This document shows positions 15,863 to 54,096 of a DNA stretch of 64,000 nucleotides, piece after piece (positions within the stretch are counted from its first letter, which is position 1; each line of letters opens with the position of its first letter). A model generated the notes under the pieces. That model did no database searches. It saw only the letters and a list, made by a program, of their open reading frames with translations, and was not told the DNA's origin. The translations under genes and the position numbers were made by a program. This DNA is from Verrucomicrobiia bacterium. Lineage in GTDB: Bacteria > Verrucomicrobiota > Verrucomicrobiia > Limisphaerales > JAEYXS01. The stretch is from NCBI GenBank assembly GCA_036405135.1, contig DASWYF010000033.1, forward strand, positions 1 through 64,000. The letters are read 5' to 3'.

Positions 15863-16182
15863 GGCTGCGACTCAGAGAGTCGCTCCCCATCTGGTAGAGA
15901 CGCGTTGCCACGCGTCCCTGACTGATCCTTGGGGTATCCGCATGACCAGAGCAGGGACATGGAATCTTAAAAGCGTCTCAGATGTTGCCCCAGCCCCTTT
16001 ATTTGCTGGTGGATATGCTCAGGTCTGGCAAGGGAACGCGGAGCACCGCGTCCCTACGGATTTGGCTTTGTTCGCGTAGCGAACCCAAGATTCCTAGGCA
16101 TGGGTTTCAACCCATGCACCTGCAAAAGCAGAAACACCGTCGCGTAGCGACGGAAGAGGAGCGCGACTCTCCGAGTCGCAGC
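15863..16182. mobile_element. MITE-like repeat family 1, full copy A with terminal inverted repeats
   Basis: 5' end gctgcgactcagagagtcgc and 3' end gcgcgactctccgagtcgcagc are reverse complements. Internal stem-loops include gcatgggtttcaacccatgc and ccgtcgcgtagcgacgg. Confidence 0.6.
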
Positions 16183-16287: not shown

Positions 16288-16446
16288 GCTGCGACTCGGA
16301 GAGTCGCGCTCCACCGGTAGGGACGCGTTGCTGCGAGTCCCTACCGGATTCGGCTTTGTTCGCGTAGCGAACCCAAGACTCCTAGGCATGGGTTTCAACC
16401 CATGCACTCGCGATTGAAACACTCCGTCGCATAGCGACGGAAGAAC
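16288..16446. mobile_element. MITE-like repeat family 1, copy B (3' TIR missing)
   Basis: Starts with the same 5' TIR gctgcgactcggagagtcgcgc. The core ggctttgttcgcgtagcgaacccaagactcctaggcatgggtttcaacccatgcac..ccgtcgcatagcgacgg is nearly identical to copy A. It ends about 37 bp from the stop of the low-GC membrane protein gene. Confidence 0.6.
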
Positions 16447-16482
16447 CGGAGCACTAAATCTCCTTCCCGACGGACGAGTTTT

Positions 16483-17190
16483 TCAACTCCCCGTCTTAGA
16501 ATCATTTGGAATACCGTCTTGCTTGTCCAGCAGGCCAGTCATTGCATAGATGCGATTTAGGAAATGATTCTGACCGGACCAGGCCATCAAGCCTGTGACA
16601 GATACAACCACCAGCCCAAAAATCCAGTCGCGCAGTACGTTTTCAGAACCCCAAAGCGATAGAAGAGCGGCCAATAAGGCAACCAAGCCCATGATAAAGC
16701 AGCCTTTGATGTTCTTTTGCTCTTCTTTCACACAAAGTTCATAAATTTCTCCGGTGCAATCGCTAGAAGTCATTCGCTGAATCAATCGGATCGTATTCTT
16801 AAGAGCAAAAATCGAAACCAAAAGGAATAGGGCAAAACTTGCCCACCACACAGATGGTTGATTCAAATGATAAATTGGGATTGTCTGAGTCAGTCCAAGA
16901 ACTAGCGGTAAAACGGTCTCCCTGAAATCGGGCGGAGACCATGTCACAGACCAAAACCAGTTGTACAGAAAAAAGACCATTATAATGCTGATAAATGAGA
17001 TAAGAGCAAAAATCCAATACTTCACTTGCAGCATCCCTCCATGTTCACCTTCGAAAACTTTCTGCAGCAGGACTGCCAACGCAAGCCCTTGAATAACACT
17101 GATCAAAGTCATGTAGTTGGGTGTAGAATGCTCAAATAGACGAGATCGGAGCTCCTCCCTAGTAAAACCTTGGTAATATGGTTTCTTCAT
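16483..17190 (-). CDS. Hypothetical multi-pass membrane protein (low-GC gene)
   Basis: 235 aa with about 6 hydrophobic helices. G+C is visibly lower than surrounding genes. It is flanked by family-1 repeat copies B and C. Confidence 0.55.
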   Translation of the reverse strand: MKKPYYQGFTREELRSRLFEHSTPNYMTLISVIQGLALAVLLQKVFEGEHGGMLQVKYWIFALISFISIIMVFFLYNWFWSVTWSPPDFRETVLPLVLGLTQTIPIYHLNQPSVWWASFALFLLVSIFALKNTIRLIQRMTSSDCTGEIYELCVKEEQKNIKGCFIMGLVALLAALLSLWGSENVLRDWIFGLVVVSVTGLMAWSGQNHFLNRIYAMTGLLDKQDGIPNDSKTGS

Positions 17191-17329: not shown

Positions 17330-17422
17330 CCAAATCCGTTTGCTTAGCAAACCCAAGATTCCTAGGCATGGGTTTCAACCCATGCACTCGCTTGAAACTC
17401 ATCGTCGCATAGCGACGGAAGG
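17330..17422. mobile_element. MITE-like repeat family 1, partial copy C (core hairpins only)
   Basis: ..agcaaacccaagattcctaggcatgggtttcaacccatgcactcgcttgaaactcatcgtcgcatagcgacgg. Lies between the 476-aa gene and the membrane protein gene. Confidence 0.55.
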
Positions 17423-17429
17423 AGTGGTC

Positions 17430-18860
17430 TTAGAAACGGTAACCCAACTTGAGCTTGCTTGCTGATGGGGCGTTAAATGCCGAATACGCGTCAACAATCA
17501 CCAAGTCAGGGACCCTTTGTTTTGCGCGCTTCAGTTTCGCATGCGCTTTCTTAATTTCATCCACTTTTGTTCGAGTAGGTCCTACCACAATCAAAAGATA
17601 GCAACTGTGCTGCGCCTGTTCTGCCTTTGCATACTCTGGTAACTGAACGAGCAAGCCACTAAGCGCACCGCTGTTTGAGGAGAGTTTGAGTTCTACCACT
17701 ACTTTGGTGTCATATCCCTTGTCCACTTTAAAGTCGACCGGTCCACGTCCAGCATTAGGTTCAGCGCTTACAGCAAGGTTATTGGCTTCGCAGTAAGAGT
17801 CCGCTATTGCGTAGAAAAGAAGTTGGGAAAACTTTTCAGGCCTCTGCCTCCCCGATTCATCAAACAAATGCTTGGATAATCCGTTATACTCTACAAGCTG
17901 CTTGAACTTCTTGATCATTTTTCTAACTGCTTCAATGAGTTCTTGCTCAGAAGTGGGTTGAGAAAGGAGAAGTTCGTTACTCTCAGAAAACTCCTTTCCT
18001 ATCCCTTCCCAAACCACCTCGCCAAGCGGATCATTCTCAAAGTCATAGGCTTTTGGTTTGCGAGCGCGATACTCTTGAATTATGCCCTTAAACAGTTCAG
18101 GGTTGGACAACAACAGCTTCCTCATCTCTGTCTTGCTGTAACGCTTAGAATATCTCGACCAAGATGACCCCAAAATTCGATTCAGTTCATCCCGCACTTT
18201 ATCGTTGTACTGCGTGATCGAATCGATATCTGAAAAACATTTTGCTTCTGGCAATGAAGCCAGAAGTGATTGCGGCAAGAGAAGGATAGGTTTTCCTGTG
18301 GATACTGAATAGGCCGCTGTAGCCGTTTGGTTACCTGCTTTAATCTGCTTGGTTTGAATGCCCAGTTTAGAACAGACACGTTCGTTAAATGCGCTAACGT
18401 CCTGCAGAATAACGTAAAGCACCATGTCGCTTATCAAATCGGGCCCGAATCCATCTTCAAAGACAGCCGCAAGTTCAAAAATTGCAGGATCTTTGATCCC
18501 GGCGTTTACGATTTCTTTTGCCGTTCCGTACATTTGACGCGCAAGGACTCGTGAAACGCCACGCCCGTGGCTTGACGCCTCCGAAAAACCTAACGCTGCT
18601 TCATCAATTTCAGGGAAAATCAATCTATCGATTGACTGACGTTCAAGCGCACCGCCTGGCGATGAATGTGAAAGCAGAACTAGAACCTCCTCAAAATATT
18701 TTTCGAATCGAGATAAACTTTTCTTAAACTCATGTACGCGTGTTGATCTTAAAAGTGCTGGGTCAATGTGCAGGCGCGAGTCGATGCCTAAGTATGCGTC
18801 AAATACTCCCTGTTTCCAGAGTTTGCCAGACGTCACTCCTAGAGCTTCGCTAATCTTCAC
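17430..18860 (-). CDS. Hypothetical protein with C-terminal PD-(D/E)xK-like nuclease motif (McrC-like candidate)
   Basis: 476 aa with a GTG start. The C-terminal segment ..GRGPVDFKVDKGYDTKVVVELK.. fits a PD..(D/E)xK signature (Asp, a hydrophobic strand, then E-L-K). It is in the same frame as the giant ATPase, 12 nt after its stop: TAA-AGGAGG-tcgcgt-GTG, which suggests translational coupling. G+C is low. Confidence 0.6.
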   Translation of the reverse strand: MKISEALGVTSGKLWKQGVFDAYLGIDSRLHIDPALLRSTRVHEFKKSLSRFEKYFEEVLVLLSHSSPGGALERQSIDRLIFPEIDEAALGFSEASSHGRGVSRVLARQMYGTAKEIVNAGIKDPAIFELAAVFEDGFGPDLISDMVLYVILQDVSAFNERVCSKLGIQTKQIKAGNQTATAAYSVSTGKPILLLPQSLLASLPEAKCFSDIDSITQYNDKVRDELNRILGSSWSRYSKRYSKTEMRKLLLSNPELFKGIIQEYRARKPKAYDFENDPLGEVVWEGIGKEFSESNELLLSQPTSEQELIEAVRKMIKKFKQLVEYNGLSKHLFDESGRQRPEKFSQLLFYAIADSYCEANNLAVSAEPNAGRGPVDFKVDKGYDTKVVVELKLSSNSGALSGLLVQLPEYAKAEQAQHSCYLLIVVGPTRTKVDEIKKAHAKLKRAKQRVPDLVIVDAYSAFNAPSASKLKLGYRF

Positions 18861-18872
18861 ACGCGACCTCCT

Positions 18873-21800
18873 TTACTCACCCTGTTCCTTTTTCTCTCCA
18901 CTCGTCTTATTCCCCTGTTCCTTCCACTTCTTCTCCGCCTCAATGATCTCCCAAATCTTCTTCAACGTATCGCTCGAAATATTCGTCACCTGGAAATCCG
19001 AAGGTTGCGCCGGATCGATGAGCCGCAACGTCTTCACTTCGCGCTGATGTTTCAGGTGCTCGGCGATCGCGCCTTGGATGGACGTCAGCGTGTCGTTGAA
19101 CTGGTTCACCTGCTTGGACACCTGCTCCAGCACCGGTGAGGTCTTCGCGGCTTTCTTGTCGGCGGATTCGGCGGATTTCACGCCCTCGGCCAGCACGCCC
19201 TTGATGCCTTCCAGGTTTTGTCCGAACGCGTTCAGTTGCGCCACGATGCTGCTCACCAGCTTCTCCGTGTCGTTGCTGGGCTTTGCGAGGCGTTGCGCTT
19301 CGATGCCCTGCGCGAGCACGGCTTTGATGGATTCCAGGCCTTCCGAGAAGGTCGAGAGCTGCACCACCACGCGGCTCACCGGGTCGCTTTCGCTGGTGCC
19401 GGAGAAAAGCTGGTTGCGCTTGAACGTGCGCTTGATCTCGTCCCAGCGCGCCAGTTGCTCCGGCGTGATGACCTTTTGGATCTCCGCGAATTTCAGCAGG
19501 TTCGCCTCCGCACCCGTGGTGAGCGTCTGCGCCTCGTTCCGGTAATGGTCCTGGATGAGCGTCCAGATCTCGCCGTCGTTCATGATGGGGAGGACCTTCT
19601 CGGCCAGCCGGTTCATGTTGCGATAGGAGCCTTGCAGCTTGAAGGGCGGCTCCGTGCGGAAGGCCTCGGCCTGCGCAGCGGAGGCGATGTATTCCACATT
19701 CACGCGCAGCACGATGTCCCGGATGCGGATGAGCTTCCGCATCACGTTCACCATCTCGTTGATCTCCTCCACGGAGTAATTCCCCTCGAAAGTCACGCCC
19801 TCGCGCGAATCCGTGTCCGCGATCTTCGCGATGGCATACACATCCTTCTGGCTGCGGCTGGCAAGCTGGTTCAGCACACGGTTCGAGGTGAGCGCATTCT
19901 CCAGGTAGCTCAGCTTGAACGCATCTTCACTGCCGCCGATGATATCGCCGAGGTTGTACGTATCGGCGCGGTTCGCGAGCATGTCCGGGATCTTGAACTT
20001 GTCGCCGCTCTCCGTGTACGGGTTGCCCGCCATGACGACGGCCACGCGTTTGCCGCGCAAATCGTATGTCTTCGCCTTCCCTTGATACACGCCCTCGATG
20101 CGCCGCTGGCCGTCGCACAACGAGATGAACTTCTGCAACAGCTCGGGATTGCAGTGCTGGATGTCATCCAGATACAGCATCACGTTATCGCCCATCTCCA
20201 GCGCGAGATTCAACTTCTCGAGTTCCTCCCGCGCACTCGCGTTCTTCGCCTCCGCCGGATCGATGGACGTCACGCTGTGGCCGATGGCCGGGCCGTTGAT
20301 CTTCATGAACACGATGCCTAGTCGGCTCGCGATGTATTCCATCAACGTCGTCTTGCCGTAACCGGGCGGCGAGATGAGCAGCAGCATGCCCATGCGATCC
20401 GTGCGCGTGTTCGCACCCGCCACGCCCATCTGCTTCGCGAGATTGTCGCCGATGAGCGGCAGATAGACGGAATCGATGAGCTTGTTCCGCACGAAGGACG
20501 TAAGCACCTTTGGCTGAAATTCCTCCAGCCGCATGTCCTCGCGCTTCGCCTCGACGAGCTTCGCCTTCAACGCGTGGAAATGTTGGAAACGCGGTACTGT
20601 CACGCGTTCATGCTGCTGCAGCTTCGACATGAACGCGTTGTAATTCAGCGCGTAACCCTCCGGCGTGATGGCCGCATGCGCCCCCGCCAGTTTCGGGATG
20701 TGCGCATTCACCGAGACATCGATGACCGAGCGCAGCTCGAACGTGCCGCGCAGCACGATGGACGCCGCCTCGTTCCGATACTCCGCATTCGGCTTCGGCT
20801 CCGCCACGCTCAGGTAGCCATCCACCCACTCGCACACGAGCTGGAACGCACTGCGCGTGTCCTCGCTCACCGACTTCAACGCCGCCTCGAACTTCTGCGC
20901 GAAATGCTTCTGCCGCAAGAATGCCTGAAAGCCCTGATAGATCGTGGACGCCTCGATGCTCGTGACGAAGTGCTCATTCGTCGTGAGATCGTGGAAAAGA
21001 TATTCGCCTGCCTGCTCCGCCAGATTCGCCGGGAACAAGCCGCTCGTCTCACTGAACTGACGGATGAGCCCTTGCAGCTCCGCGATATACGTGTCCGGCT
21101 GCTCGCGACCGGGGAACAGTGTATTACGTAGGCGGAAACCCGCCAGCTTCGCCGTGAGCAACGGATTTTTCGGCGACTGATCCCGCCAGAAGACTGTCGC
21201 ACAGGCCCGCGCATGCGTGTGGTAGCGCAGCAGTCCGATGCTGGAGTGCATCCGCGCCAGCTCGCGCAGCAAGAGCGCGGCATCGTTATCATGGATGCCC
21301 TTCACATAGCCCTCCGCATAACGCGGCGCCATGAACTCCTGCACATGCGCAAACTGCTCCTCCGCACTGAGCTTCAGGAAACTCTCGACGCTCTGGCCAT
21401 GCGACTTCGCCTCCAGCGCCTTCAGCAATTCATACGCGAGGTATTCGCCGCGATACACCGTAGGGCTTTCGGAGACGATCTCCTGTTCCCACGCATCGCG
21501 CGTGCCGAGAAACTCCGCATCCGTCACCTTCTCGAAGAAATTTGTACCCGTGAGGTGATAGAACATCGCATCATCCCGCTGCACGACGGTGAGTTCCAGC
21601 GGCTGCGTGTTGACGTTGAACTTGTGCTTGCCGAACTGGATTATGTTCTTGCCATCGACGTACAGGTCCTGCTTGTCCTTGAGCTGGCGGACGGCGTCCT
21701 CGCGGATGGTCTTGAGGCGGCTCTGGATGTCGCCGGACTTCACCGTATCCTCCAGCTCCGTGAGCTGGCGCACGATGTCGCGCACCTTGTCCACCATCAG

Positions 21801-24212: not shown

Positions 24213-24267
24213 GGTAAATTACGAAAGAGATTTCGATTCGATGCGCGAACGGCGAGCGCTCGCTAAC

Positions 24268-24443
24268 CTGGTAGGGCGAGACTCCGTCGAGCCCTTGCCA
24301 GACCTGAGCGTAGGCGCAAACCCTATGCGGTGCTCGGGCAATGCAGAAAACATTCGAAGCTCCCATGCATTGCCAGAGTTACTTTTCTGGTCGATGAATA
24401 TCCCGAGATCTAGTTTGGGCTCGACGGAGTCTCGCCCTACCAG
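24268..24443. repeat. 175-bp element bounded by perfect 27-bp inverted repeats (MITE-like or structured RNA)
   Basis: ctggtagggcgagactccgtcgagccc at 24268-24294 is the exact reverse complement of 24417-24443. The internal 9-bp inverted repeat is ggcaatgca..tgcattgcc. A 12-nt palindrome gcgagcgctcgc lies just outside at 24252-24263. Confidence 0.7.
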
Positions 24444-24499
24444 TTCAGGGTTGATTCGGTGGACGCTCATGGTGTGTTGATCACTCACACGGGTTAAGC

Positions 24500-24528
24500 G
24501 GGACAGGCATGGCGCCTGTCCCACTACG
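24500..24528 (-). other. Stop-adjacent conserved motif CGTAGTGGG + 9-bp hairpin (copy 3)
   Basis: gggacaggcatggcgcctgtcccactacg, located 10 nt after the flotillin TAA on the sense strand. It is not followed by a U-run. Confidence 0.5.
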
Positions 24529-24538
24529 TTGCGAGAGC

Positions 24539-26644
24539 TTACACCGTTTTCATCGCGGCGACTTTCGCCACCTTCTCATCCTGCACGCCGAAGCGTTTGG
24601 CAGCGTTGAGCAGGCGTTCGAGCGCGCCCTTGGTCTCGGTGTTATCAGACAGCGAGATCATCTGCGCGAGTGCGGCGGAGACCGTGAGGTTTTTCAAATC
24701 CTCGGAGGTCAGGCCGAACTGCGAGGTGAAGCCCTTGAACTGCTCGCGGAAGTATTCCGGGTCGCTGTTGAAGAACGTGTCGCGCACGGTCGTGAGCGAC
24801 TGGCTGTTGTCGATCACGCGATCCACGGATTTGCCCGCCGTGATGGCGTTCACGATCTTGTCGAAGAAGACATGGTCGCCGCCCACGATGTCGACCTTGG
24901 CGTTCTTGAGCGCTTCGGCGACCACCATGGCCTGGCTGGACGCGATGTCTTTCTGAATGTGGATGGACGCGAGTTCGACATCCTTCTCCTTGTTGAGGCG
25001 GAGCTTGAACTCTTCGTGCTCGCGACCGACGCCATCGAATATCTTCATGGCTTCGGCTTTCTCGGTGATGCCCTTGGCCTCGGCCTCGAACTTCAGTTCC
25101 ATGACCTTGGCTTCCGCAGTGCCTTGTTTCTCGGCAGCAGCAGCCTTCGCTTCGAGCACCTTGGCCTCGGCAATGCCTTGCTTCTCCGTTGCGACGGCGC
25201 GTGCTTCGAGCACTTGCGCTTCGCCCAAGCCAGGAGCCGCAGTTTCGACAACGACGGCTTCTGCCAGACGCTTCTTGGCGACGGATTCGCGCTCAGCAGC
25301 GGTTTGCTTCGCCTCGGCGGTGATGATGACTTCTTCGGCGTGAATCTCGGCCGCTTTCTTGGAAGCTTCCGCATTCTTCACCATGCGATACATGTCCTCT
25401 TCCGCCTTAAGCTCCGCGGCTTTCTTGGAAGCTTCGGCAGCCTTGATCTCTTTGACCAAGCCTTCTTCCGCTTCCATCGCGGCCTTGGTGAGTGTGACGG
25501 TCTTGGCGCGATCGGCACCGGCAAAGGCTTCGGTGTCCTTGATGCGTTCCTTCTCAGCCACGACGGCTTTCTCCACCATCACGCGTTCGCGGATGACGTC
25601 TTGAATCTTCTTCTGCTCGATCTCGATGACCTTGGTCTTCTCAATATCGGCCAGGGTGACGACGCGTTCGCGCTCGGTGACTTCCAGCAGGCGATCCTTC
25701 TCCACGCGCTCGGTTTCCACCGCGTTCGTGCGCTCCTTGTTCTTTTGCGCGACGATGATCTGGCGGTTCTTGTTCTCTTCCGCGATGGCCACTTCCTCTT
25801 CCGTGGCGATGCGTGCTTGTTCGGATTTCAACCGGTTCTCCTGCTGCACCTTGATGGCTTCTGCCGTTTCGCGGGCGGTGATGGCGGCGACTTCGCGTTT
25901 CTGCTTCTCCGTCGCTTCGGCGAGCTGGCGGTTGAGTTCGAGGATGGCTTCTTGAGCTTCGACGTCCTGCTTCTTGATCACTTTCTCGCGATCACGCGCG
26001 ATATGGTTCGCCAGCTTTGCCTGCGTGGCGGTGAGCTCGGTGATCTTCTTGATGCCCTCGGCATCGAGGATGTTGTTCGGGTTCAGGAATTCGAGCGGCG
26101 TTTGCTCGAGGTAATCGATGGCGGCGTCATCCAGCACATAGCCGTTCAAGTCTGTGCCGATGATGCGGAGGATCTGCTCACGGAATTTCTCGCGTGAGTT
26201 GTAGAGCTCCACGAAATCAAACTGGCGACCGACAGTTTTCAACGCCTCGGAGAACTTCGCCTCGAACAGTTCGGCGATGGCGGTGCGATCAGACGCGCGC
26301 ACACAACCGATGGTCTGTGCTACGCGGAGCACGTCCTGCTCGGTCTTGTTCACGCGCACGAAGAAGGCCACGGAGATGTCCGCACGGACGTTATCCATGC
26401 AAATCAGGCCTTGCTGGCCGCGACGGTTGATCTCCAGTCGCGTGACGGAGATGTCCATGTATTCCGCCTTGTGAAAGACGGGATAGATGAGCTTGCCGGA
26501 AAAGGTGACGCTGGTGCCGCCCGCGCCGTTCTTCACGAGCGCCTGCCCCTGCTGCACCTTGCGGAAACAGATGGTGTAAACGGCCAGCGTGCCGAGCACG
26601 GCCAGCCCCAATACTCCCAAGACGACGAATACTAGTGGACCCAT
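24539..26644 (-). CDS. Flotillin-like SPFH/Band-7 protein (YqiK/FloT-like) with long Glu/Ala-rich coiled-coil repeats
   Basis: 701 aa. N-terminal TM helix, SPFH domain, then EA-rich repeats (..EAKVLEAKAAAAEKQGTAEAKV..). The flotillin C-terminal region is present. Confidence 0.85.
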   Translation of the reverse strand: MGPLVFVVLGVLGLAVLGTLAVYTICFRKVQQGQALVKNGAGGTSVTFSGKLIYPVFHKAEYMDISVTRLEINRRGQQGLICMDNVRADISVAFFVRVNKTEQDVLRVAQTIGCVRASDRTAIAELFEAKFSEALKTVGRQFDFVELYNSREKFREQILRIIGTDLNGYVLDDAAIDYLEQTPLEFLNPNNILDAEGIKKITELTATQAKLANHIARDREKVIKKQDVEAQEAILELNRQLAEATEKQKREVAAITARETAEAIKVQQENRLKSEQARIATEEEVAIAEENKNRQIIVAQKNKERTNAVETERVEKDRLLEVTERERVVTLADIEKTKVIEIEQKKIQDVIRERVMVEKAVVAEKERIKDTEAFAGADRAKTVTLTKAAMEAEEGLVKEIKAAEASKKAAELKAEEDMYRMVKNAEASKKAAEIHAEEVIITAEAKQTAAERESVAKKRLAEAVVVETAAPGLGEAQVLEARAVATEKQGIAEAKVLEAKAAAAEKQGTAEAKVMELKFEAEAKGITEKAEAMKIFDGVGREHEEFKLRLNKEKDVELASIHIQKDIASSQAMVVAEALKNAKVDIVGGDHVFFDKIVNAITAGKSVDRVIDNSQSLTTVRDTFFNSDPEYFREQFKGFTSQFGLTSEDLKNLTVSAALAQMISLSDNTETKGALERLLNAAKRFGVQDEKVAKVAAMKTV

Positions 26645-26675
26645 AGCTTTGCTTTCTCTCTGCTTTGTTTCTCTA

Positions 26676-27326
26676 TCAGTTGCGGACTACGAAATAGATG
26701 CCGGAAGATTTGTCCTCGCGCACGACTTGCACGCGGTCTCCCTGCTTGTAAATTTTCCCGTTCTCGCTGCGCGCCTGCACGGTCAGGGGCGCGCCTTTGA
26801 TGTCAATGTTGATCGTGCCGAATTTGCCATCCAGCTCGCTGGTCATCACGGTGCCGACGAGGCCGACCATCGGCGGTGCCTTGTCATAATCCGTGTTCAG
26901 GTAGCGGTTCATCTTCGCGAACGGCTTCGCGACGAAGTGCGTGATAATGGCCGTCACCAGCAAGTTGGGAACGAACAAGCCCAGTGCCATGAGCACCGTA
27001 TGATCAGGATTGAAAAAGCGGTTCACAAGGATCGCAAAGATCCACATGCACAGCACCATGATCGTGACGACGCTCATCGCCGGGGCTTCGCCGATGTTCA
27101 AAAACTTGAGCACGGGTTGCAGCACGCCCTCATCCTCGCCTCCTCCTTCAGTCCCCCCGGCAGCGTCACCCACACCATCGCCACCGTCGAAGAAAGGGAG
27201 ATCGATATCGATCATCCCGATGAGCACGAGCAGCCAGTATAGAACGACGCCGCCGAGCATGACGGTGAAAGGCAGGTTGATCCACGCAAGTGAATCTCTG
27301 AACAGTTCCCAGGTTGATACGATCAT
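26676..27326 (-). CDS. NfeD-like / YqiJ-family membrane protein (N-terminal TM helices + C-terminal OB-fold-like domain)
   Basis: 216 aa. Two to three TM helices, an acidic Gly-rich linker, then a beta-rich C-terminus. Sits immediately upstream of flotillin, as in yqiJ-yqiK operons. Confidence 0.6.
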   Translation of the reverse strand: MIVSTWELFRDSLAWINLPFTVMLGGVVLYWLLVLIGMIDIDLPFFDGGDGVGDAAGGTEGGGEDEGVLQPVLKFLNIGEAPAMSVVTIMVLCMWIFAILVNRFFNPDHTVLMALGLFVPNLLVTAIITHFVAKPFAKMNRYLNTDYDKAPPMVGLVGTVMTSELDGKFGTINIDIKGAPLTVQARSENGKIYKQGDRVQVVREDKSSGIYFVVRN

Positions 27327-27762
27327 GACATTGTCGCTTTATTCATTGTCATCGCAAACCTCAGTGCGAAGACGTTTGCCTTCCTTATTTCTCTGCTCCC
27401 GGGTGTCCCGGTCCGGGAGTCACTTCGACGTGTGCATCAAACCAGATGCAGCCGCGAGCAGCATCTATAAATTCGTGATCCGTTTGTAAGTAACTCATGA
27501 GCAGGAAAGGAAGCAGTGGTTGGGTGCTTCGTTGCTCAATGAGTGAAGGGTTGTCGGTTTGGGGAGGAGTTTCAAGTTTTCAGTGTTCAGTTTTCAGCCG
27601 GTTGCGCCGGAGGCCAAAAGTTTCGTGTTTCTAGTTTTGAGTTTCGGGTTGGGAACTGACCACGGAGGTCCGGAGAACACGGAGTTCCAAGATGAAGAAA
27701 GAAGAGAGCGAGTTTTGATCCCTGCCCCACTGAAAACTGATTACTGATAACTGAAAACTTCC

Positions 27763-38695: not shown

Positions 38696-38862
38696 TCTTA
38701 GAGCGTTTTAAAAAATACTGTGGCCGGTTGGGGCGAGGCTTTGGCGAAGGAGCAGGTTCCAAAAGACCCTGTGACTGAGCCGAAACGACGTCAGAACCCA
38801 AAAAGACTGCCCGCTTCGCTCCCCAGACACAATCGACTGCAGTATTTTTTAGACCGTCTAAC
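38696..38862. mobile_element. MITE-like repeat family 2, copy 1 (about 165 bp with terminal inverted repeats)
   Basis: Ends agagcgttttaaaaaatactgtgg ... ctgcagtattttttagaccgtct are inverted repeats. Nearly identical to 47185-47345. Confidence 0.65.
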
Positions 38863-47179: not shown

Positions 47180-47184
47180 AGGAT

Positions 47185-47345
47185 TAGAGCGCTTTAAAAA
47201 ACAGTGTGGTCGATTGGGACGAGGCTTTGGCGAAGGAGCAGGTTCCAAAGTCTCTGCGACTGCGCCGAAACGAAGCCAGAACCCAAAAAAGACTGCCCGC
47301 TTCGCTCCCCAAGACAATCGGCTACAGTATTTTTTACCGCTCTAG
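47185..47345. mobile_element. MITE-like repeat family 2, copy 2
   Basis: ttagagcgctttaaaaaacagtgtgg ... ctacagtattttttaccgctctag. The internal ggcgaggctttggcgaaggagcaggttccaaag..gactgcccgcttcgctcccca is shared with copy 1. Confidence 0.65.
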
Positions 47346-54026: not shown

Positions 54027-54048
54027 GGGGAATCAACGATTAGGGAAT

Positions 54049-54096
54049 CACCCCTCACCCCGGCCCTCTCCCCTCCGAGGGGCGAGGGAGAAGAGG
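54049..54096. repeat. REP-like GC-rich palindromic repeat family 3, copy X3
   Basis: cacccctcaccccggccctctcccctccgaggggcgagggagaagagg. Shares cccctcacccc/ggcc/tctccc..gagggagaag with the moaD-moaE spacer copies. Confidence 0.55.

Follow-up and report, generated by a model that had tools for sequence, protein, structure and literature searches.

The question raised by this locus is whether a giant ATPase gene that follows a flotillin gene pair forms one unit with the pair, and how far along the DNA such a unit extends. The locus is located within a 64,000-nt stretch of contig DASWYF010000033.1 from a Verrucomicrobiia bacterium (hereafter, the window), and all the genes concerned, both those of the module and those of the cargo next to it, are on the minus strand. 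In the initial annotation, a pair of flotillin (SPFH) and NfeD-type genes was placed upstream of a giant AAA+ ATPase gene on the same strand, with a structured 326-bp spacer between them, and two further genes, encoding a nuclease-like protein and a membrane protein, were added to give a five-gene system. The open reading frames (ORFs) of the pair were indeed identified on the minus strand exactly where they had been placed, and the ORF positions confirmed the location of the pair relative to the ATPase gene and the length of the spacer (Table 1). The comparison of relatives described below shows that the segment 18873-27326 (minus strand) is one copy of a widespread and conserved three-gene module, aligned in the order YqiJ, flotillin and ATPase.

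For collection of ATPase-associated loci, one genome per species was scanned by alignment of the ATPase, yielding at least 575 stretches with a relative, of which 80 loci were kept. These loci were derived from genomes of Verrucomicrobiota, Planctomycetota, Desulfobacterota, Bacteroidota, Calditrichia and Hydrogenedentota, and from Fibrobacter-labelled genomes, altogether at least seven phyla. The count was limited to loci with 2.6 kb or more of upstream sequence (63 loci); among these, the flotillin gene was located directly 5' of the ATPase gene on the same strand in 59 cases, and a YqiJ-like gene was present 5' of the flotillin gene in at least 50 of 56. The search was also carried out from the flotillin side, using metagenome contigs. 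The ATPase gene was then found 3' of the flotillin gene on the same strand in 62 of the 64 loci with at least 1.2 kb of downstream sequence, while the YqiJ-like gene was detected 5' of the flotillin gene in 62 of 70. The contexts of individual flotillin homologs agreed with the three-gene order in all the cases inspected (7/7). The initial annotation had asked how often giant ATPases neighbour SPFH/NfeD pairs and whether the adjacency is conserved in relatives, and both of these counts give a clear positive answer. Since the adjacency is conserved in both search directions, the link between flotillin and ATPase is supported; the linkage is near-obligate, reciprocal and co-oriented across at least seven phyla.

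After all-versus-all clustering of the ORFs from 92 loci, only three conserved clusters were detected, those of ATPase (88 loci), flotillin (75 loci) and YqiJ-like protein (67 loci), and the next real clusters reached at most 9 loci. A conserved fourth gene 3' of the ATPase gene was ruled out, because no fourth cluster exceeded 9 loci. The ORFs tightly coupled to the 3' end of the ATPase gene across phyla were DFP, radical SAM, cytochrome, ADH or PspA genes, or there was none.

The three-gene core itself had been noticed before, and the view that the arrangement is not a described system must be corrected in this respect. In a survey of phage-shock-protein systems by comparative genomics, Ravi et al. 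(2024, mSystems, PMC11237479) described operons in which YqiJ/YuaF is followed by Band-7/flotillin and by an ATPase with beta-propeller, coiled-coil and AAA+ domains, with or without CesT/Tir-PspA, and stated that the abbreviated operons lacking PspA 'are more widely distributed'. The supplementary table of the same paper includes, for Dokdonia donghaensis, the order YqiJ-YuaF, Band-7+coiled-coil+flotillin and beta-propeller+coiled-coil+AAA-ATPase (near ANH61663.1). That paper contains neither frequencies nor an experiment nor a link to the Pfam families DUF3686 and DUF7902, and thus the core has been known only as a comparative-genomics remark. The three genes of the window correspond to this operon in kind, order and strand, the order being that of the supplementary table, and the ATPase shows the propeller/coiled-coil/AAA+ architecture, as indicated by the AlphaFold2 models, the Foldseek assignment of the propeller and the AAA+ core. 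The window differs from the full form of the operon in that neither a CesT/Tir nor a PspA gene (the latter searched with a small hidden Markov model) was found adjacent to the module or elsewhere within the 64 kb. The genes 5' of the 216-aa YqiJ-like ORF are instead those for a Zincin_1 protein, an iron-dependent repressor and mnmE, and therefore the window represents the abbreviated form.

The full arrangement was observed in three Bacteroidota loci (L034, L048 and L062; loci are designated by L numbers), in which genes for a CesT/Tir-like protein of about 135 aa and a PspA-like protein of about 210-260 aa are aligned 5' of YqiJ. PspA genes were likewise found beside the module in L002, L027, L050 and L086-L088. 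As a side observation, the Verrucomicrobiota locus L002 carries, directly 5' of the module and in divergent orientation, a PspA gene together with a gene for a 559-aa AAA protein (L002 6207-8806), and a 606-aa AAA gene is located just 3' of the module in L003 (18505-20325). A second ATPase may be part of an extended system in some lineages.

The identity of the first two proteins could not be read from domain models. The 701-aa and 216-aa proteins gave no match in Pfam, NCBIfam, PADLOC, PHROG or PDB sequence-model searches, even at E=10, and their identity was therefore set by comparison with the yqiJ-yqiK genes of E. coli K-12 (NC_000913), of which YqiK carries Pfam Band_7 and Flot and YqiJ carries YqiJ_N and YqiJ_OB. 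In BLASTP-type pairwise alignment, the 701-aa protein showed 31% identity to E. coli YqiK over 442 aa (E=1e-44), and a family profile made from 10 flotillin sequences was aligned with YqiK at an hhalign probability of 99.9% over columns 6-426, which cover the transmembrane (TM) segment, the SPFH domain and the coiled coil. Hydropathy analysis predicted a single N-terminal TM segment (residues 1-28); the SPFH (Band 7) domain follows this anchor, as indicated by alignment with the Band_7-bearing part of YqiK, and residues of about 200-550 (approximately 350 aa, 52-68% E/K/A/R/Q) form a predicted coiled coil that is aligned with that of YqiK up to column 426. The C-terminal Flot domain (PF15975) was not detected by Pfam, and the last 222 aa showed no similarity to this domain when compared with YqiK residues 380-553 (E=2.2). 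The C-terminal part of about 150 aa is conserved inside the subfamily, so the tail appears to be either subfamily-specific or diverged past detection. Homologs of this flotillin amount to more than 8000 clusters with source names of 'flotillin' or 'YqiK', and the subfamily is unusually conserved, being 50-68% identical across phyla.

The 216-aa protein was aligned with E. coli YqiJ at E=3e-6 by pairwise BLASTP, and a profile of 67 orthologues was aligned over the full length of YqiJ including the YqiJ_OB region (E=3e-13, hhalign 97.7%), even though the Pfam models YqiJ_N and YqiJ_OB themselves gave no match to the protein. By hydropathy it has about three TM segments; these are followed by an acidic/Gly linker, and the C-terminal tail is beta-rich and OB-like, in agreement with a multi-TM protein with a predicted C-terminal OB-fold-like domain homologous to that of YqiJ. 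Its gene is immediately 5' of the SPFH gene and co-oriented with it, with a gap of 31 nt in the window; the same arrangement was observed in most of the related loci (at least 50/56 and 62/70) and in E. coli. At the level of sequence, the homology to YqiK and YqiJ together with the TM pattern confirms that the pair is a true flotillin with a membrane partner of YqiJ/NfeD type, and the two-gene module proposed in the initial annotation was correctly recognized.

Pfam assigned the ATPase to DUF3686 (residues 37-477, E=1.4e-182) and DUF7902 (residues 599-682), followed by weak matches to AAA_5, AAA and RuvB_N at residues 1262-1400. According to AlphaFold2 models, constructed with 30-sequence alignments and reaching predicted local distance difference test (pLDDT) scores of 72 and 74, the chain begins with an N-terminal helix, to which a beta-rich domain (59-412) is joined. 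Long helices then extend over about 400 residues (approximately 429-850, a coiled coil that includes DUF7902); a small beta domain and a helical domain lead to a single AAA+ module, and the C-terminal tail is again helical. The beta-rich domain was related by Foldseek to WD40-type propellers (Sec12, DCAF1 and Vps11/18) with a probability of about 1.0, while the AAA+ module was related about equally to RuvB, NorQ/CbbQ (MoxR family), Rubisco activase and Cdc48/p97, with RuvB on top; sequence matches to PDB were weak and included VCP-like proteins and RuvB. The Walker A motif GYGKT (residues 1284-1288), the sensor-like N1397 and R1415 are invariant. The Walker B motif LDDIQH (residues 1348-1353, within LYLDDIQH of the pattern hhhhDD) is also invariant in 30 homologs and carries DD, not DE, throughout the family; these two residues (1349-1350) correspond to window positions 20163-20168. 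Neither a TM segment (hydropathy) nor a peptidase family (Pfam and NCBIfam) was predicted for the ATPase, and its PADLOC matches (mad8 and IetA) were weak and confined to the P-loop region. Apart from these results, a 1711-aa homolog, P0296, with 58% identity to the ATPase was noted in a eukaryotic protein set (EukProt), representing either contamination or a eukaryotic DUF3686 ATPase.

In databases the ATPase is named 'DNA repair ATPase' or 'MoxR-like ATPase'. Following the Pfam description of DUF3686 and these NCBI names, the protein would be a motor for DNA repair or another nucleic-acid transaction, and its location next to flotillin would be due to common regulation or to genome architecture in place of a joint machine. 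Among the Foldseek relatives of the AAA+ module RuvB ranks first, and it is also among the top sequence matches; a terminator-like hairpin separates the two genes in most loci, both in agreement with such a motor. The likeness to RuvB, however, is no greater than that to NorQ and Cdc48, and neither a DNA-binding nor a nuclease nor a helicase domain was detected outside the AAA+ core by Pfam, NCBIfam or Foldseek. The literature search, directed at DUF3686/PF12458, DUF8370/8371, RiboL-PSP and flotillin combined with 'DNA repair ATPase', yielded nothing useful and no paper in support of a repair motor. Over at least seven phyla, the only neighbours conserved are the two membrane proteins, whose order and strand are fixed and whose linkage is reciprocal in more than 93%. 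We therefore regard the repair motor as very improbable, and the name 'DNA repair ATPase' given to DUF3686 proteins probably misleads.

Recurrent partners of SPFH proteins are AAA+ proteases and NfeD proteases, as known for HflK/C-FtsH, prohibitin-m-AAA and stomatin-NfeD. By analogy with this recurrent pairing, the module could serve as a scaffold for regulated proteolysis or quality control of membrane proteins in the manner of HflK/C-FtsH, with the AAA+ protein as an unfoldase that feeds a protease encoded elsewhere. The AAA+ core resembles the Cdc48/VCP-type unfoldases in the Walker A region, and a beta-propeller would suit substrate recognition. Against this model, the ATPase carries no protease domain and no TM segment, and the YqiJ-type partner of 216 aa, with TM segments and OB-like tail, lacks the ClpP-like protease domain that long NfeD proteins carry. 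The 92-locus clustering revealed no conserved protease near the module, and the recurring extra neighbour is PspA. A proteolytic scaffold is hence an unlikely explanation in our estimate.

The spacer between the flotillin and ATPase genes bears on the mode of transcription. The minimum free energy of its folding is -152 kcal/mol (z=-10 against dinucleotide shuffles), so that the description of the spacer as structured was correct. This strong folding is due to a 12-bp GC hairpin and a 186-bp inverted-repeat element. The hairpin begins 14 nt past the flotillin stop codon and is not followed by a U-run. The 186-bp element has perfect arms of 27 nt (CTGGTAGGGCGAGACTCCGTCGAGCCC), is responsible for most of the spacer structure and is unique in the window; the part of the spacer that contains it could not be aligned with the spacers of L085-L087, which hold other short repeats. 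It appears to be a lineage-specific insertion, either a MITE-like element (miniature inverted-repeat transposable element) or a structured RNA. No Rfam family matched the region 15.5-28.8 kb at E<=1, and therefore both the spacer and the repeats of about 100 nt described below fall outside the known RNA families. A consensus scan for sigma-70 promoters and intrinsic terminators identified no site in the spacer, a result of E. coli-type consensus that is uninformative for a Verrucomicrobial genome. As a separate observation, a short palindromic element, CACCCCTCACCCCGGCCCTCTCCCC...GGGGAGAGGGC, recurs in intergenic regions of the window (54048-54095) and within the flotillin-ATPase spacers of relatives (L085 6287-6334 and L087 12376-12416); it is similar to repetitive extragenic palindromic (REP) or terminator elements.

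Among 74 loci, the median length of the flotillin-ATPase spacer was 155 nt, and in some Bacteroidota 0.7-3 kb with other genes are inserted between the two. The first 80 nt past the flotillin stop fold with z<-2 in about two-thirds of 64 loci (mononucleotide shuffles), often with perfect stems of 10-20 bp, and in the Bacteroidota loci L030, L042 and L045 the hairpin is followed by a T-run, as in a classical terminator. Since the hairpin is present in about two-thirds of the loci, attenuation within a co-transcribed unit is possible. Obligatory co-transcription of the flotillin and ATPase genes appears doubtful, and the simplest reading is that a partial terminator holds the ATPase well below the level of the scaffold protein. 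A strong terminator and an independent promoter within the spacer, with anticorrelated expression, had been named in the initial annotation as signs of unlinked genes; a strong hairpin is indeed common, with a T-run in Bacteroidota, and transcription of the ATPase gene may therefore be partly uncoupled, but the adjacency is nonetheless conserved, and this conservation argues for a functional link between flotillin and ATPase despite the hairpin.

The two genes downstream of the ATPase gene behave differently from the module. The 476-aa ORF starts only 12 nt past the ATPase stop and has its own ribosome-binding site (AGGAGG), but the 476-aa and 235-aa genes were found in none of the 160 surveyed module loci (0/160), and they are also absent from the close Verrucomicrobial relatives L085-L088 and L173-L175, of which the flotillin is 84-92% or the ATPase 89-93% identical to that of the window. 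The slot just past the ATPase stop is occupied by a HEPN_RiboL-PSP gene in L085 (+13 nt), a cyclase-like gene in L086, an AIPR gene in L087 (+3 nt) and a convergent SEC-C gene in L175, while L173 and L174, both with a 93% identical ATPase, carry no insert before a convergent MoxR/DUF58/DUF4129 operon. The DNA homology between the window and its relatives ends within the last 10 or so codons of the ATPase gene, and the encoded proteins have different C-terminal tails. The 3' junctions of the ATPase gene are at 18860-18906 in the window, 11673-11720 in L085, 17790-17820 in L086 and 17820-17850 in L087. Among close relatives the slot is hypervariable, and it looks like a hotspot of defence or cargo genes.

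The family of the 476-aa protein carries DUF8370 and DUF8371 and matches phrog_30194, a group of unknown function (E=1e-80), and an identical protein has been deposited as a hypothetical protein of a Verrucomicrobiae metagenome-assembled genome. In Chryseobacterium koreense the homolog has hsdR on one side and a GmrSD gene on the other, and genes for AbiEii and an integrase are close by; in another lineage it adjoins integrases and a serine recombinase; and homologs occur without any DUF3686 ATPase. In the family alignment E367, D376, K378, E390 and K392 are invariant, which fits a C-terminal D...ExK motif of PD-(D/E)xK-like type. A profile search identified no PDB relative of this protein, and therefore the PD-(D/E)xK call depends solely on the invariant motif. 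It is plausible that the family represents a stand-alone defence nuclease. The 235-aa protein gave no match in Pfam, NCBIfam, PADLOC or PHROG.

The cargo region is also distinct in composition and repeats. The GC content at 16-18 kb is 47%, against about 57% for the window. The repeat of about 100 nt consists of three hairpins, CCGTCGC-TAT-GCGACGG, GCATGGGTT-GA-AACCCATGC and GTTCGC-TA-CGCGAAC, with the sense on the minus strand; its three copies in the window are confined to this region and bracket the 235-aa gene. L085, L086 and L087 each carry a single copy distal to the variable gene, and every short-read contig that carries the identical 476-aa gene breaks off at this repeat. An integron-like cassette array was considered for these repeats and rejected, since neither a GTTRRRY/RYYYAAC pair (by-eye motif check) nor an integrase was found. 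The neighbouring ORFs encode a DUF6799 protein, an esterase and an ABC-2 permease, and none of them is an integrase. As judged from sequence comparison, the 476-aa and 235-aa genes appear to be lineage-specific, horizontally acquired cargo in a variable spot and not components of the module.

These results bear directly on the five-gene system, which would be a membrane-anchored defence machinery made of an McrBC-like NTPase-nuclease pair at flotillin microdomains plus the 235-aa membrane protein. The short distance and own ribosome-binding site of the 476-aa gene, the invariant D...ExK motif, the occurrence of the family in defence islands, the presence of HEPN_RiboL-PSP or AIPR genes 3-13 nt past the stop in the same slot of relatives, and the weak mad8 and IetA matches at the P-loop of the ATPase could all be taken in its favour. 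The absence of both genes from 160 of 160 loci and from the nearest relatives, the lack of any insert in L173/L174, the homologs of the 476-aa protein without DUF3686 ATPase, the housekeeping genes, PspA or nothing downstream of the ATPase across phyla, and the low-GC, repeat-bracketed nature of the region all point in the opposite direction, and we consider a five-gene defence system most improbable. Only three genes are conserved, and co-inheritance of the PD-(D/E)xK-like gene with the ATPase gene was not observed. The variable slot also permits a combined model, in which the triad is an autonomous machine for sensing and repair of membrane damage, its ATPase remodelling polymers of flotillin or PspA, and in which, in this Verrucomicrobial clade, the last codons of the ATPase gene are a landing pad for interchangeable Abi-type effectors, so that a suicide or defence effector would be co-induced by the membrane stress of phage infection. 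The HEPN_RiboL-PSP, AIPR, cyclase-like and DUF8370/8371 proteins would then be such effectors, expressed from their own ribosome-binding sites 3-13 nt past the ATPase stop, and the hotspot would be coupled to membrane stress and delimited by the dedicated repeat of about 100 nt. We consider this model unlikely.

Taken together, we favour, with moderate confidence, the reading that the conserved triad is a flotillin scaffold remodelled by its ATPase under membrane stress, the 476-aa and 235-aa genes being cargo; a module function in membrane-stress scaffolding and remodelling is likely by analogy. In the mechanism proposed, flotillin anchored by its N-terminal TM segment would oligomerise on the cytoplasmic face of the inner membrane, with the YqiJ-type protein as its membrane partner. 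The soluble ATPase, probably hexameric like other AAA+ proteins, would dock onto the flotillin assembly by its beta-propeller and coiled coil, possibly via the subfamily-specific C-terminal domain of flotillin. With the energy of ATP it would build up, take apart or remodel a polymer bound to the membrane, in response to envelope stress or in the course of membrane repair. This polymer could be the flotillin scaffold or could consist of PspA/ESCRT-III-like proteins, whose genes, depending on the lineage, are close to the module or elsewhere. The logic would be analogous to that of Vps4 with ESCRT-III, or of the AAA+ partners of other SPFH cages. The post-flotillin hairpin probably lowers expression of the ATPase relative to the abundant scaffold.

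Several observations weigh against the remodelling model. No PspA-like ORF was detected in the 64-kb window using a small hidden Markov model made from five module-linked PspA sequences, and PspA is nearby in only about 10-15% of the surveyed loci. The median spacer of 155 nt with its hairpin, and the larger inserts in some Bacteroidota, indicate that flotillin and ATPase possibly form separate transcription units. The clade of the AAA+ module is ambiguous, RuvB, MoxR-like NorQ, Rubisco activase and Cdc48 giving similar scores; the DD of Walker B may render hydrolysis slow or regulatory; and the 'DNA repair ATPase' name used in databases leaves some room for a role in repair. The C-terminal Flot domain and the Pfam models for SPFH and YqiJ are undetected in the window proteins, and we infer the function of the module from gene context and domain analogy only.

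The near-obligate association provides bacterial flotillins with a concrete and testable partner, a propeller/coiled-coil AAA+ protein of 1,700-1,900 aa, and the pairing points to energy-dependent remodelling at SPFH scaffolds, with a possible parallel to Vps4/ESCRT-III or FtsH/HflKC. The apparent system of NTPase, nuclease and membrane protein is explained by mobile cargo that landed beside the conserved module, and its spread through annotations as a novel type of defence should be avoided. As a computational observation, the three-gene core was known before. The interest of the locus thus resides mainly in the strength of this linkage, the doubtful 'DNA repair' label and the effector-like variable slot of the Verrucomicrobial clade.

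Table 1. Features of the module, the spacer and the adjacent cargo region in the window
Feature	Position	Strand	Basis or remark
YqiJ/NfeD-type inner-membrane protein, 216 aa	26676..27326	-	ORF; YqiJ homology; TM scan
Long flotillin-family SPFH protein, 701 aa	24539..26644	-	ORF; YqiK homology
Flotillin-ATPase spacer, 326 bp	24213-24538	-	between ORFs
Giant cytosolic AAA+ ATPase, 1779 aa	18873..24212	-	ORF; Pfam, AlphaFold2, Foldseek
DUF8370+DUF8371 protein, 476 aa, GTG start	17430..18860	-	ORF; apparent accessory cargo, outside the conserved module
235-aa protein, 5-6 predicted TM segments, low-GC stretch	16483..17190	-	ORF; apparent accessory cargo, no family assignment
GC-rich 12-bp hairpin, candidate attenuator or mRNA 3' stabiliser	24497..24525	-	starts 14 nt past the flotillin stop codon
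186-bp inverted-repeat element within the spacer	24263..24448	unstranded	27-nt perfect arms at 24268-24294 and 24417-24443
Three-hairpin repeat of about 100 nt, three copies	16069-16165, 16357-16452, 17338-17421	-	delimit the cargo genes 3' of the ATPase gene

Two other repeats were noticed in the window. An identical 22-nt motif, GTTTTCAGTGTTCAGTTTTCAG, with similarity in its flanks, is located at 428-449 and 27576-27597, one copy being about 250 nt 5' of the yqiJ-like start and the other 5' of the ORF at 752-1543. This motif may represent an operator common to both sites or a dispersed repeat. A direct repeat of about 150 nt, 83-91% identical, is present at 38698-38851 and 47184-47336, 8.5 kb apart.

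Among known systems, the nearest to the first two genes are yqiJ-yqiK of E. coli and yuaF-floT of B. subtilis, with homologous proteins, the same gene order and a short intergenic gap. As in the yqiJ-yqiK type, the flotillin of the window is composed of an N-terminal TM segment, SPFH domain and coiled coil, and its partner of three TM segments and an OB-like tail. In contrast, the window flotillin carries about 150 additional aa, differs in its C-terminal domain and escapes the Pfam Band_7 and Flot models. In E. coli no such ATPase is located downstream of yqiJK, and the ATPase therefore goes with the long, highly conserved flotillin subfamily. With McrBC-type pairs the locus shares a weak AAA_5 match in the ATPase and a closely spaced gene with a D...ExK motif, but the nuclease-like gene of the window is not a conserved partner (0/160) and is not co-inherited with the NTPase; the family stands alone in defence islands. 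With HflK/C-FtsH and with ESCRT-III/PspA-Vps4 the analogy is only functional, a membrane-bound oligomeric scaffold being combined with a ring-shaped AAA+ ATPase, and homology is limited to the generic AAA+ and SPFH folds. The window ATPase is not a membrane-anchored AAA+ protein with a protease domain as FtsH is, nor does it carry an MIT domain; it is instead equipped with a propeller and a coiled coil of about 400 aa. In the case of the PspA-Vps4 analogy, PspA itself recurs beside modules of the type found in the window.

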